Below are positions 2,527 through 40,345 of a stretch of DNA of 48,927 nt, one piece after another. The position numbers and the translations under genes are program-made. How positions within the stretch are numbered: position 1 is the first letter of the stretch; every line of letters begins with the position of its first letter. The notes beneath the pieces are model-generated. The model ran no database searches and had not been told where the DNA came from. It saw only the letters and a list, made by a program, of their open reading frames with translations. Location: the IMG/VR virus record IMGVR_UViG_3300045809_000027. One strand, given 5' to 3'. The DNA comes from a virus.

Positions 2527-3597
2527 ATGGAAATGGAAAAATTTAAAGATGATTTAAAACAATTGGGAAAGCGCGTAATAAAGCTAAAAGACAATATTGG
2601 TACGGAAGAAGCAACTAAAACTTCACTCATTATGCCTTTTTTTGCAGCGTTGGGCTATGATCTATTCGATCCCACTGAATTTGTTCCAGAGTTCACTGCA
2701 GACGTGGGTATTAAAAAAGGTGAAAAAGTCGATTATGCTATTGTTATCGATAGTAAGCCTACTATTCTAATTGAAGCGAAGTCAATTAATGAAAAATTAA
2801 CAAAACATGATTCACAACTTTTTAGATACTTTGGGACTACAGAATCTAAATTCGGGATCTTAACGAATGGTCAAGAATACAAATTTTTTACTGATCTAGA
2901 TGAACCTAATAAAATGGATTTAGCACCCTTCCTTACAATAGATATAACAAATATTAAAGACAACCAAGTTCCTGAGTTAGCTAAGTTTCATAAGGAAAAT
3001 TTTGATGTTGACAAGATTACTAGTTCTGCCGCTGAGCTTAAATACTTGAGTCGTTTAAAGGATTATTTATCGTCTGAGCTTGACAATCCTAATGATGAGT
3101 TTATTAAGTTCCTTCTTGGTGAAATTTATGATGGGATGAAAACAAAACAGATCATTGATAAATTTAAACCAATTATAAAAAAAGGACTCAATCAGTTTAT
3201 CTCTGAAAAGGTAAATGATAAATTAAGCGCTGCATTAAAATCATCAGTCTCAGTAGATGAATTAGATACTAAATCAGAATCAAATACTACAGAAATTGAC
3301 GAACCTGAAGTTATTACAACACCTGAAGAACTAGAGTCATATACTATTGTCAAGGTGGTTTTAAAAGATGTAATTCCTCTTGATCGTTTATTCTATCGTG
3401 ATAATCGCAGTTACTTCAATATTTTATTAGATGATAATATTCGCAAGTGGATTCTAAGAGTACGATTCAATACTAATGGTATGAAGATTGAATTAAATGA
3501 TGAAAAACACTCTGTGTTTGAATTATCTCAACCGATGGATATTAATAATTACGCCAAAGAAATAATCACAATTGTAAATAGATTTAATCAGAAGTAG
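2527..3597 (+). CDS. HsdR_N-like (type I restriction enzyme R N-terminal domain) PD-(D/E)XK protein with unknown C-terminal half
   Basis: EEATKTSLIMPFFAALGYD...GEKVDYAIV...PTILIEAKS...HDSQLFRY...FGILTNGQEYKFF matches the HSDR_N_2 pattern (D...EAK core). GGAG lies 8 nt before the ATG at 2527. Starts 16 nt after the cI stop. Confidence 0.65.
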   Translation: MEMEKFKDDLKQLGKRVIKLKDNIGTEEATKTSLIMPFFAALGYDLFDPTEFVPEFTADVGIKKGEKVDYAIVIDSKPTILIEAKSINEKLTKHDSQLFRYFGTTESKFGILTNGQEYKFFTDLDEPNKMDLAPFLTIDITNIKDNQVPELAKFHKENFDVDKITSSAAELKYLSRLKDYLSSELDNPNDEFIKFLLGEIYDGMKTKQIIDKFKPIIKKGLNQFISEKVNDKLSAALKSSVSVDELDTKSESNTTEIDEPEVITTPEELESYTIVKVVLKDVIPLDRLFYRDNRSYFNILLDDNIRKWILRVRFNTNGMKIELNDEKHSVFELSQPMDINNYAKEIITIVNRFNQK

Positions 3598-37275: not shown

Positions 37276-38739
37276 TTATTTCCTCCTTCCTCTTATCTTA
37301 GGCAGATTGGGTTTAACATCGTCTGGATCAAAAGGCTTATCCATCTTAACCAACGCCTGAGACATCGAATCCACATCGTCATCATGAGCTCCATTAGGGA
37401 ATGCTTCTAACTCATCTAACACTTCATCAGTCCATGCTTTCCATAGCGGATGAGGTACGTAGACATTTCCTGACTCCCAAAATGGTGCCACTGCTTGTGC
37501 GCGCACTTCTTTACCTCCTTGAGGATTCACTGCAACCATGCCAGGGATCTTTTTTTGTAGCATTTCAATGACGGCAGTACCATTCGCCTTATCTTCGACT
37601 AGTTTTGCCGTTGCTTCCGGCCAACGAGCTGTCAATGATTGGATAGCTCGCATCGTTTCTACGATGCCCATTCGCTCATGATGCCGATCTAGTAAATAAA
37701 AATCAGCATTATCTCTTGCCCATACTTGACCAGCCACATAGTCAGAAGTGCTTTTGTCCTTAAAAGTACAATCCCAAGACTGTATCTGCTGACTAAAAGA
37801 ACTAGGCATGACTTTTACATCATCGCCTAGTCCCAATCGCACTTTCATTTCAATGGAAGGCACATAATATTTCGCCCATGATCGTTTAAAGATATCTCCA
37901 CCAGCAGGTGTTGGTCGCTGCTGGTACAATGATGCCCAACCACGGGACCCAGTAACAGCTTTGGTTTGCTCCGCCCATTCTTCATCTTTACCAATTTCAG
38001 GGGCTAAAGCATCGCCGACCTTACGATCAAGCAAGTCCTTTTCCTCCGCAATAGCTGGTATTTTGATTTCGATCCAAGGTAATGTTTTTTCTTTTAATAA
38101 ACGACCCGCTAAATCATCTTCATGCCAACGAGTCATAATAATGATTACAGAACCATTTGCCGATAAACGAGAATAAAACGTATCACGCCATTCAGAATAA
38201 ATTTTATCTCGGATTGTCTTACTTTCTGCCTCAGCTCTGTTTTTTACAGGATCATCAATTATCAATAGATCGGAGCCACGGCCAGTTGCACCACCTAAGA
38301 TAGATGTGCTGTATAACTGACCTAAATGATTATCAATACCCCATTCAGAAACACTCGCTATCTCAGAACTTAGTTTCAAATCGAATAGTTCATCACTGTA
38401 TAAACGAAATTTTTCTCGGTTTTTTCGTCCGAACTTTTTGTAAAGTTCCTCTGAATATGAAACAACCATCGCCAATTTATCAGGATTCTTGCATAAAAAA
38501 TAAGCTGGGAAGGTCTCTGTGATAAAAGTAGATTTACCATGTTGTGGTGGTAACTCCACGATGATAAATAATCGTTCTCTATTTGCTATACGATCCAAGT
38601 AAGGTGATATATATAACTGGTGTCGTAATGGTTTAAATGTGCACCCGTGGGTATAGAAAAAGAAGTCAGCAAAATTTCTCCTCGCTAACTCCTTTAGTGA
38701 TTCTTTTCTAATTATCTCAAGATCAACCATCTTGTTCAT
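37276..38739 (-). CDS. terL: Terminase large subunit
   Basis: Walker A VELPPQHGKST, Walker B LLIIDDP, and the C-terminal nuclease motif GAHDDDVDS. Confidence 0.9.
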   Translation of the reverse strand: MNKMVDLEIIRKESLKELARRNFADFFFYTHGCTFKPLRHQLYISPYLDRIANRERLFIIVELPPQHGKSTFITETFPAYFLCKNPDKLAMVVSYSEELYKKFGRKNREKFRLYSDELFDLKLSSEIASVSEWGIDNHLGQLYSTSILGGATGRGSDLLIIDDPVKNRAEAESKTIRDKIYSEWRDTFYSRLSANGSVIIIMTRWHEDDLAGRLLKEKTLPWIEIKIPAIAEEKDLLDRKVGDALAPEIGKDEEWAEQTKAVTGSRGWASLYQQRPTPAGGDIFKRSWAKYYVPSIEMKVRLGLGDDVKVMPSSFSQQIQSWDCTFKDKSTSDYVAGQVWARDNADFYLLDRHHERMGIVETMRAIQSLTARWPEATAKLVEDKANGTAVIEMLQKKIPGMVAVNPQGGKEVRAQAVAPFWESGNVYVPHPLWKAWTDEVLDELEAFPNGAHDDDVDSMSQALVKMDKPFDPDDVKPNLPKIRGRRK

Positions 38740-39145
38740 AGGCTAATCGCCTCAATTCTTCGGTGCTTAGTTCAGCATATGGATTTTTTGCTTTCACTTC
38801 ACCGGATAACTCCAATTTCTTAGTGTATATTCCATCCATTTTGTTCAAAGTATCAATCGCTCGAATCTGGTCTCCTGGATACTCATCGTCATTAGCAATC
38901 TCTGAAAGCTTCACCATACGTTCCTTTCGGGTCATAATAGCTTCGTCTTGAGCTTCTTCTTGGAGTTCTTTATACCTAGCCAGAATCTCATTTTCTCTGA
39001 ACAAAGCACTCGCCTTGTTGTCTACTGTAGCGTCTTTCCACCTATTGGCGGAAGCGAACGCCTCGCGATATGCTTTCCGTTGTGTCATGCCTGAAATTAG
39101 GCATTGAACGAACTTTTCATGTCTCGCGTTTTCTAATACAGACAT
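38723..39145 (-). CDS. terS: Terminase small subunit
   Basis: MSVLENARHEKFVQCLISGMTQRKAYREA is a TerS (Terminase_2/P27-like) N-terminal HTH. AAGGAG RBS. Overlaps the terL start. Confidence 0.8.
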   Translation of the reverse strand: MSVLENARHEKFVQCLISGMTQRKAYREAFASANRWKDATVDNKASALFRENEILARYKELQEEAQDEAIMTRKERMVKLSEIANDDEYPGDQIRAIDTLNKMDGIYTKKLELSGEVKAKNPYAELSTEELRRLAYEQDG

Positions 39146-39160
39146 GCTCTCAACTCCTTT

Positions 39161-39192
39161 GAAAAATAAAAAGACCACCCAATTGAGTGGTC
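39161..39192 (-). terminator. Hairpin plus T-tract immediately upstream of the terS RBS
   Basis: On the minus strand, GACCAC-TCAATTGG-GTGGTC followed by TTTTTATTTTTC, then AAGGAG and the ATG. Confidence 0.6.
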
Positions 39193-39499
39193 CTGGTTAT
39201 GTACTGGGCGGCACGTGAACTTTAAAGGAAGAGGAGCTATTCACTTCCTTCTTTATTTTTTTAATTGTGCCGCCTAAGATTGTAGAAACCGAGAGAGGAA
39301 GCTGTTCACCTCCTTCTGTTTTTTTATAGGTTATGTGAGTAGCCTATAAAATATTTTGATGCTCTCTATAAAAACAGCTAGTTCAGATGGTTGTTCATTT
39401 ACTCCACTTTTTAGCAGTTGTCCTGTTTATGATGTTCGTCTGACTAGCTGTAAATATACTAATTTGATAATAATAGTATATAGCAGAAAAACGTGATTA

Positions 39500-39531
39500 A
39501 ACCGCCAAATATCCCGCAAAAAACCGCCAAA
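39500..39531. promoter_or_regulatory. Two AAACCGCCAAA direct repeats 22 bp apart (candidate late-activator binding site)
   Basis: AACCGCCAAA occurs at 39500-39509 and 39522-39531, just downstream of arpU and upstream of terS. Confidence 0.4.
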
Positions 39532-39539
39532 ATAATTGT

Positions 39540-39956
39540 TCAACGATATGCGATCAATCTGCCTTTTTTATAAGCTTCAGCAAATTCAATTAGAGCTTCT
39601 GACATTAGTCTTTCAACGCTGCGCTCAGAGTAGCCAATTTCACGGCCGATTTTATAATTAGAATAACTATCAGGTGCACAGTAGCGGTAATAGAGAACTT
39701 GACGACTTGTTATTCCCAAAGACATCAAAGCTGCTAAAATAGCATCTCTTTCAGCTTCAGCTTCCATAAATTGGATCATTCCGTCTTCCGCCTTGTTCCC
39801 CCATCTATCGCCTTTTGGCATGTCTGACATGACTGGTGATTTAATATCTATCATTGACTTTCCCGCTATACGTACCCACTTACGATAATTTTTCAATATT
39901 TTTCTTGCATTACATTTAGTTTGATAAAAATCGACTTCTCTCAATAGCGCTATCAT
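39540..39956 (-). CDS. arpU: ArpU-family late transcriptional activator
   Basis: 138 aa. Has a sigma-region-4-like C-terminus (GYSERSVERLMSEALIEFAEAY) and the typical position upstream of terS. Confidence 0.75.
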   Translation of the reverse strand: MIALLREVDFYQTKCNARKILKNYRKWVRIAGKSMIDIKSPVMSDMPKGDRWGNKAEDGMIQFMEAEAERDAILAALMSLGITSRQVLYYRYCAPDSYSNYKIGREIGYSERSVERLMSEALIEFAEAYKKGRLIAYR

Positions 39957-39971
39957 GCCATCCGCTCCTTG

Positions 39972-40040
39972 TGCTATAATGTTATTGACTAGATAACGTT
40001 TAGCACTGAGTGAAAGCTTGGTGTTTTTTTATGATATAAT
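39972..40040 (+). promoter_or_regulatory. Two perfect extended -10 boxes on the plus strand
   Basis: TGCTATAAT at 39972-39980 and TGATATAAT at 40032-40040. Confidence 0.55.
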
Positions 40041-40046
40041 TGTTGT

Positions 40047-40122
40047 GAGCTAGGCTTTTCCTTCAATGGGCGCAAGCATATTTCAACTAGCTCACTGGCA
40101 ACCGACCACTGGTTGCTTTTTT
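40047..40122 (+). ncRNA. Candidate ~75-nt antisense RNA opposite the arpU leader
   Basis: 9-bp stem GTGAGCTAG (40045-40053) with CTAGCTCAC (40087-40095). Then a terminator: GCAACC-GACCACT-GGTTGC (40098-40116) plus T6 (40117-40122). Confidence 0.5.
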
Positions 40123-40150
40123 CTATGCAGTTGACGACGTTAGCGGAACG

Positions 40151-40345
40151 CTAACACTCTTCTTCAAACAACTTATTCATATCTATTTCACTAAACTTCT
40201 CTTTGATCCTGACCAATATCTCAAAACTTGGCTTCCTGAAATCATTCTCCATTTGTCGGTAGTATCCATACGAAAGATTTAATGCTTCGGCCATTTGACG
40301 CTGAGTTAATCCTGCTTGCTGACGAAAACTTTTTAAATATTCCAT
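40151..40345 (-). CDS. Small XRE-family HTH protein (Aca-like position)
   Basis: AGLTQRQMAEALNLSYGYYRQMENDFRKPS is an HTH motif. 64 aa. Confidence 0.75.
   Translation of the reverse strand: MEYLKSFRQQAGLTQRQMAEALNLSYGYYRQMENDFRKPSFEILVRIKEKFSEIDMNKLFEEEC

Follow-up and report, generated by a model that had tools for sequence, protein, structure and literature searches.

In the toxin-antitoxin systems IstR-1/tisB and Sok/hok, the regulator pairs upstream of a structured ribosome binding site (RBS) by means of a single-stranded 5΄ tail. The sar RNA of phage P22 is a constitutive transcript of ~69 nt, which starts from a promoter in the leader/intercistronic region, ends at an intrinsic terminator and covers the RBS of ant. 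It is an antisense RNA against ant (PMC5415839). In phage lambda, OOP is a terminator-ended RNA of 77 nt that is antisense to cII and forms a duplex leading to RNase III-dependent decay (PMC5415839), and paQ is antisense to Q, the late regulator gene, and restrains late expression (PMC2327240; PMC5415839). Among Gram-positive plasmids, RNAIII of pIP501 and RNAI of pT181 are constitutive small antisense RNAs directed against the leader of a key gene (PMC5415839). The ArpU-family proteins turn on packaging and lysis, and hence transduction, in a very large group of temperate phages of Gram-positive bacteria. In phiFL2A, ArpU activates the terS late promoter, and ltr genes are reported to come last in the early operon controlled by cI (PMC3753634). 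In the literature that we searched, no antisense RNA against arpU is described, the only paper found being Quiles-Puchalt 2013, which contains no such RNA; stem-loops annotated upstream of arpU in the TP-J34 paper are not discussed there.

We analyzed the arpU region of IMG/VR virus record IMGVR_UViG_3300045809_000027, a window of 48,927 nt (the whole stretch of DNA that was analyzed). The window represents an Enterococcus temperate phage or prophage, whose ArpU is 100% identical to one from E. hailinensis and shares 62–67% identity with the ArpU proteins of phiFL and phiEf11. The phage genes around the gap upstream of arpU all lie on the minus strand, and the features of the locus are as follows.

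37276–38739, minus strand: terL.
38723–39178, minus strand: terS.
39540–39956, minus strand: arpU, the late-gene activator and presumed target (TIGR01637 phage_arpU, E 4.4e-33).
39965–39970, minus strand: Shine-Dalgarno (SD) sequence AAGGAG of arpU, 8 nt before the ATG, read in the sequence and kept in all loci of family A, the sequence family of this phage.
40151–40345, minus strand: XRE-type HTH gene of 64 aa, the last gene before the gap (HTH_3, E 1.1e-11).

The arpU product also matches the phrog_248 transcriptional activator (E 1.4e-40). A sequence-only reading of this DNA had placed a 194-bp gap between the HTH gene and arpU, and both neighbors were found there by their HTH_3 and TIGR01637 matches. 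The same reading had seen no minus-strand terminator after the HTH gene, and a terminator scan of the gap likewise found none. Since the gap holds neither a sense terminator nor a clear sense promoter, read-through from the HTH gene into arpU is expected. The HTH gene itself is not a conserved partner of the elements described below, relatives with the same units having other genes at that place.

Several further elements were observed near arpU. Two direct repeats, AAACCGCCAAA, lie at 39500–39531, immediately downstream of the arpU stop codon, where the gene strand reads TTTGGCGGTTT. ArpU-binding direct repeats have been shown at the equivalent position after arpU in phiFL2A (PMC3753634), and the 50 nt upstream of a minus-strand transcription start site (TSS) of E. 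faecalis V583 that lies downstream of arpU (1952358; PMC7724050, from the available part of Table S1) contain TGGCGG...TTGGCGG. Because of this position and this motif, we regard the AAACCGCCAAA repeats, by analogy, as the probable ArpU boxes in the late promoter. On the minus strand, a strong terminator-like hairpin with 10 pairs and a T-rich tail is located at 39171–39194, where the listed terS ORF begins, and thus after the presumed late-promoter region, not right behind arpU. At the HTH end of the gap, a perfect palindrome, GTTAGCGGAACGCTAAC (40139–40155), extends over the HTH stop codon; neither strand has a T-run behind it, so that it is not a terminator, and it may be an operator. In phiEf11 and phiFL1A (L014, L015), a tRNA gene was found at 2142–2214, ~230 nt downstream of arpU.

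On the plus strand of the gap, opposite the arpU leader, we identified two tandem units, each running from a promoter to a terminator. These units and the hairpin predicted in the sense leader are listed below.

39972–39980, plus strand: P1, an extended –10 box, TGCTATAAT, with no –35 element, back to back with the arpU SD (read in the sequence).
39988–40031, plus strand: unit 1, a predicted antisense RNA of ~44 nt, in which a single-stranded 5΄ tail of 14 nt precedes the terminator hairpin (fold of the whole RNA, –10.4 kcal/mol).
40002–40030, plus strand: T1, an intrinsic terminator with a 10-pair stem at 40002–40025 (4 G–U pairs), a GAAA tetraloop and seven T at 40024–40030 (terminator scan).
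40032–40040, plus strand: P2, an extended –10 box, TGATATAAT, likewise lacking a –35 element, kept in 12/12 viral contigs with the unit 2 body.
40048–40122, plus strand: unit 2, a predicted small RNA of ~75 nt with a long 5΄ stem-loop (40045–40095) followed by T2 (fold, –20.2 kcal/mol).
40098–40122, plus strand: T2, the intrinsic terminator of unit 2 (terminator scan).
39971–40006, minus strand: sense leader hairpin, which ends 1 nt before the SD (MFE folds; outer arms 40001–40006/39971–39976, inner arms 39993–39997/39981–39985).

Most of this anatomy had been read correctly from the sequence. Both –10 boxes are present, as are the 9-bp stem formed by GTGAGCTAG (40045–40053) and CTAGCTCAC (40087–40095) and the terminator composed of GCAACC (40098–40103), the loop GACCACT, GGTTGC (40111–40116) and T6 (40117–40122); no plus-strand ORF of at least 30 aa was found in the gap, and the boxes do head real-looking promoter-to-terminator units. 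With regard to the two RNAs that had been predicted, ~75 nt and ~135 nt, the former stands and the latter needs to be revised, because T1, a plus-strand terminator between the two –10 boxes that had been overlooked, would end the first RNA at ~44 nt. The gap therefore resolves into two tandem units of ~44 nt and ~75 nt, and a 135-nt RNA would arise only through read-through of T1. The start of unit 1 was set 8 nt after the –10 box by analogy with V583. Unit 1 has its weak points, namely the missing –35 element of P1 and the weak stem of T1. The segment from 40044 to 40124 folds at –28.5 kcal/mol (z = –3.65 compared with shuffled sequences). A 22-codon ATG frame within unit 2 was considered as a possible peptide and rejected for want of an SD, and unit 2 was treated as non-coding.

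Searches of known RNA classes and phage records placed these units in no described group. Rfam yielded no match across the whole window and, within 39800–40300, only chance-level matches (E 7–9); a tRNA/tmRNA scan found no genes; and blastn of 39900–40200 against 50,697 phage records found no match, so that loci were compared via the ArpU protein.

We accordingly collected arpU loci from species genomes, IMG/VR and GenBank phages by means of five ArpU queries that are mutually 28–37% identical, covering five lineages: Enterococcus, pneumococcal, S. pyogenes, S. thermophilus and Lactobacillus phages. An extended –10 box on the opposite strand, followed by a terminator, was observed in 238 out of 249 distinct arpU upstream regions (376 loci), although loci within one lineage are close relatives and the independent evidence amounts to about five to seven lineages rather than hundreds. 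The box starts 17–23 nt from the arpU start codon, directly beside the SD, and the median predicted RNA length is 40–42 nt in each of the five lineages; the sequences are unrelated between lineages. Unit 1 is thus strongly conserved in architecture and not in sequence. Within the motif TGnTATAAT, TG and TATAAT are invariant, and n is C, A, T or G according to lineage. When the strict motif was scored in the same DNA, it was present at 113 of 117 distinct arpU starts, compared with 2 of 336 other ORF starts. By contrast, the count of TGNTATAAT in the whole window (6, compared with 2.9 expected) was reached in 7/100 shuffles; the motif count by itself is not above chance, whereas the position-specific conservation is. 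The recurrence of unit 1 at this position in hundreds of ArpU phages has exceptions: it is absent from Listeria A118, Oenococcus phiS13 and one Enterococcus larvae prophage, in all of which arpU is pressed against the upstream gene. The control exerted by ArpU therefore does not require unit 1.

Some of the collected records deserve separate mention. The GenBank record of EJ-1 annotates the box as an extended –10 promoter and does not mention the terminator behind it. In the pneumococcal phages 109751 and EJ-1 (L097, L104), a 14-bp leader helix ~20–75 nt upstream of arpU can bury the SD, one of its G–U pairs being valid in the sense RNA only; the antisense RNA of these phages contains an exact SD look-alike, and past its terminator lies a divergent AbrB-type regulator gene with its own promoter. 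An Enterococcus-type arpU with the antisense unit was also found on a 1340-bp contig of a Streptomyces assembly (L011), and the records named Listeria phage LM 4-11-1 / 4-14-1 and Acinetobacter phage D2SVT score the same as Enterococcus phages; these records are probably contaminated or mislabelled. Listeria rliG was tried as an analog of the units and rejected: in A118 (L096), which has no room for the unit, the Rfam rliG match (3155–3526, 274 bits) is on the same strand as the arpU homolog and right after it, overlapping its last ~40 nt.

The terminator hairpins were also compared between the two strands. Of 112 distinct hairpins, 105 are more stable as antisense-strand RNA than as the complement, and the T-run is on the antisense side in every case. 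This tendency arises from G–U pairs, of which each hairpin contains 1.5–2 in the antisense RNA, compared with ~0.1 in the complement (Wilcoxon p = 3e-19), and which make the terminator hairpins specific to the antisense RNA. For example, the four G–U pairs of the T1 stem of this phage become C–A mismatches in the sense RNA. Across 13 family A sequences, 99.2% of the cells of the T1 stem are paired, and 5 of its 10 pairs vary, always via G–U. The hairpin loops are always GNRA in both Enterococcus families (GAAA, GAGA, GCGA, GCAA, GUAA).

In this phage, an inverted repeat around the P1 –10 box and the start of the antisense RNA forms the predicted sense leader hairpin, and in its arm variants, GTCAT (L004, L028) and ATTAT (L387, L390, L392), the pairing is kept via G–U in the sense RNA only. 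The 5΄ arm of this hairpin and half of its loop have their complement in the 5΄ tail of the antisense RNA. Countertranscript-driven attenuation was considered for this leader and ruled out by the absence of a sense-strand terminator before the SD.

Published transcription start sites of E. faecalis V583 are available for homologous promoters. We used the available part of Table S1 of Michaux et al. 2020 (PMC7724050), according to which V583 arpU is the prophage gene EF2024, on the minus strand with a CDS start at 1952842. Position 1952877 of the plus strand is listed there as a TSS (step height 178, enrichment 26.6 in dRNA-seq) and classed as antisense, a putative asRNA to EF2024 (PMC7724050). 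In the 50 nt upstream of this TSS, the start codon, the SD and TGGTATAAT are arranged as in the present phage, and the TSS falls on the eighth base past the box. A further plus-strand TSS, strong (height 1603) and classed as orphan, is listed at 1953002 (PMC7724050, Table S1); it has a TGATATAAA box, lies 125 nt beyond TSS 1952877 and matches P2 in position. The sense TSSs of V583 arpU at 1952986 and 1953135 give 5΄UTRs of 144 and 293 nt, which overlap both plus-strand units (PMC7724050). In V583-like viral contigs, the 125-nt spacing is reproduced, and the predicted RNAs of 54 and 68 nt each end at a terminator. Judging from these contigs and the listed TSSs, the two-unit design of the present phage is mirrored in the V583 phage, where both promoters fire in uninduced cultures and are overlapped by the arpU 5΄UTRs. 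The signal at 1952877 is moderate, and it is the sole P1-type TSS among the Table S1 rows listed; the authors of the study did not include these two RNAs among their sRNAs (PMC7724050). The start-site evidence pertains to the V583 homologs, and in this phage and in family A the units are predicted from sequence. Separately, ~400 nt upstream of arpU in V583 pp4, the same table lists a plus-strand TSS at 1953273 with a step height of 92,897, a TGGTATAAT box and an antisense orientation to EF2025 (PMC7724050; L403 and relatives). On the listed values, a prophage RNA that is very abundant in the lysogen starts at this TSS, and its counterpart is missing in the phage analyzed here.

Because unit 1 occupies the same spot in hundreds of phages and its start site is mapped in V583, we read it as an overlooked brake, probably acting on the onset of packaging and lysis. 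With the promoter, terminator, strand specificity and conservation of unit 1 established at the level of sequence, we infer three further steps, namely the pairing, the route of repression and the sign of the effect. We lean, with slightly better than even confidence, towards the reading that the gap carries two tandem non-coding plus-strand units, of which unit 1 belongs to a conserved class of cis-antisense RNAs and acts as a countertranscript brake on ArpU. The RNA of unit 1 would be made constitutively, and its single-stranded 5΄ tail would pair with the arpU leader at about –32 to –75. This pairing, together with head-on transcription from P1, would lower ArpU synthesis, either through cleavage or decay of the duplex or through blocking of ribosome access beside the structured RBS. 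Stray arpU transcripts would thereby be kept silent in the lysogen, and ArpU synthesis after induction would have to wait until early transcription is strong enough to outrun and occlude P1.

Unit 2 is less uniform than unit 1. Its body was observed in 12 viral contigs, always just past unit 1, and accompanied by any of three terminators and by two or more arpU alleles; in some relatives it is followed by a third unit, and other members of family A have either a different unit 2 of like design or no unit 2. An A-to-G difference in its 5΄ arm leaves the pair intact as G–U on the plus strand only. Unit 2 is thus a variable add-on that is likewise antisense to the read-through transcript, and it probably reinforces unit 1. 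The 7-nt terminator loop recurs behind these small units: it is GACCACT here (40098–40116), and in relatives (unit 2 of L001/L002/L003/L026; L034/L065/L088; L390/L392) it is reverse-complemented, as AGTGGTC or GGTGGTC, with the T-run on the same side. The loop would be either inverted or an orientation-free site, and the pattern is unexplained.

The conserved element could alternatively be the promoter alone. Polymerase starting at P1 and moving 40 nt head-on would then form a roadblock or collision zone that throttles read-through, the terminator merely shielding the early genes. Such an arrangement would account for a unit whose position relative to the SD is fixed and whose very short length is conserved while its sequence is not, and which converges on the early operon without a sense terminator; in addition, the listed V583 start sites place P2 and the arpU sense promoter in a back-to-back overlap. 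We nevertheless consider this explanation unlikely, since a single-stranded 5΄ tail followed by a hairpin is the classic shape of a pairing RNA, and the complementary bases are presented by the sense leader hairpin. Interference and pairing are moreover compatible and would have the same direction of effect.

An effect of opposite sign would be expected if the upstream arm of the leader closes the SD, and the antisense RNA, as the exact complement of this arm, opens the leader (anti-antisense, as in DsrA/rpoS) or directs a cleavage that removes the arm. We found that the SD pairs with a segment complementary to the terminator of the RNA in the leaders of Enterococcus family B, phiEf11, phiFL1A, pneumococcal phages, Javan515 and a Latilactobacillus phage, and that the arm co-varies with the SD of each lineage. 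In family B, phiEf11, phiFL1A and the pneumococcal phages, the duplex energies are about –16 to –18 kcal/mol, compared with –8 to –9 kcal/mol for shuffled sequences (family B, –18.5 compared with –9.4 kcal/mol, z –4.3; pneumococcal phages, z –4.5). However, the pairing is not significant in family A (E –11.5, z –1.1, 9/100 shuffles being as good), nor in the S. thermophilus or Lactobacillus groups, and for this reason activation cannot explain a unit that is universal. SD sequestration as a general principle was accordingly ruled out for this phage by the z of –1.1, although it is valid in other lineages. A constitutive supply of the RNA in the lysogen would, furthermore, cancel the guard that a closed leader provides against stray arpU transcripts, and a role as activator appears distinctly unlikely to us for this phage, although it is a serious alternative wherever the SD is sequestered.

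Alternatively, the RNAs may have targets in trans, either in the host or in the arpU leaders of related phages that superinfect the cell or reside in it (RNA-based exclusion, cross-talk between prophages), in which case the proximity to arpU would reflect linkage. The homologous promoters are active in uninduced V583 cultures, according to the listed start sites, and unit 2 is modular, as described above. The strongest variation was observed in family B, where 37 distinct sequences (loci e.g. L005–L095) contain 1 variant of the –10 box, 4 of the SD region and 20 of the 27-nt single-stranded RNA tail, as would be anticipated for a specificity determinant. This variation could represent a diversified pairing specificity among co-resident prophages, or it could simply be relaxed constraint. 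As no target was found besides the complementary leader, and unit 1 was never seen apart from arpU, we regard an action in trans instead of control in cis as quite improbable. That the features have no function, being chance features of AT-rich intergenic DNA or, for the hairpin, the terminator of the upstream operon, is barely credible: although the TGNTATAAT count is not above chance and compact phages have the hairpin directly behind the stop codon of the upstream gene, this view is contradicted by the counts at arpU and other ORF starts (113/117 compared with 2/336), by the antisense-side T-run and the G–U pairs that disable the hairpin in the sense RNA, and by the TSS listed at the homologous promoter of V583.

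The timing of ArpU synthesis has so far been known only as that of the 'last gene of the cI-controlled early operon'. If the countertranscript reading is true, a post-transcriptional layer would be added to the ArpU switch, which would guard lysogens against accidental lysis, possibly serve as a timer after induction, and make the start of late expression sharper; the phages concerned would be those of enterococci, pyogenic and oral streptococci, dairy streptococci and lactobacilli. In its widest form, and only tentatively, we suggest that an antisense RNA of ~40 nt, among the shortest of bacterial regulatory RNAs, may be a near-universal and so far undescribed part of the ArpU switch in temperate phages of Lactobacillales, spanning dairy S. 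thermophilus phages and S. pyogenes, S. pneumoniae and enterococcal prophages, where it may set the threshold or timing of packaging and lysis and might even act in trans as an immunity or incompatibility determinant between prophages. Such a trans action on related phages is suggested by the fact that the RNA would be made in lysogens and that the pairing tail is its variable part. A length of ~40 nt is probably below the usual size cut-offs of libraries, which may explain why standard RNA-seq annotation missed the RNA.

Finally, unit 1 can be compared with the systems described at the outset. The sequence-only reading had likened the design to countertranscripts of lambda and P22, and this comparison is apt in its logic, the closest system being paQ, likewise a phage countertranscript aimed at the gene for the master regulator of late genes. 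However, paQ sits inside the Q coding region and needs CII, whereas the arpU unit lies outside the coding region, has an extended –10 box that looks activator-independent and yields an RNA of ~40 nt; the target Q is an antiterminator and ArpU a sigma-like activator, and there is no sequence relationship between the two systems. In form, sar and OOP are the closest, sar being a small terminator-ended antisense RNA from the leader region of a phage regulatory gene. The part of the earlier comparison that does not hold is a sar-like cover of the RBS: sar covers the ant RBS, whereas the arpU RNA starts (39988) ~17 nt upstream of the SD (39965–39970) and runs away from it and from the start codon, in all lineages alike, and is therefore not of the RBS-masking sar type. 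The decay of a duplex, as for OOP, is one of the mechanisms proposed here, although OOP overlaps the 3΄ end of its target gene and the arpU RNA the 5΄ leader. The arpU unit is related to paQ, sar and OOP neither in sequence nor through Rfam, and it is not a member of these types. It resembles pIP501 RNAIII and pT181 RNAI in being antisense to a leader in the same host group, but those RNAs induce a terminator in the nascent leader, and arpU has no such sense-strand terminator. With IstR-1/tisB and Sok/hok, the unit would share a pairing upstream of the RBS and not on it, and by analogy with these systems the arpU RNA might block a standby site, a mechanism that is hypothetical for arpU.
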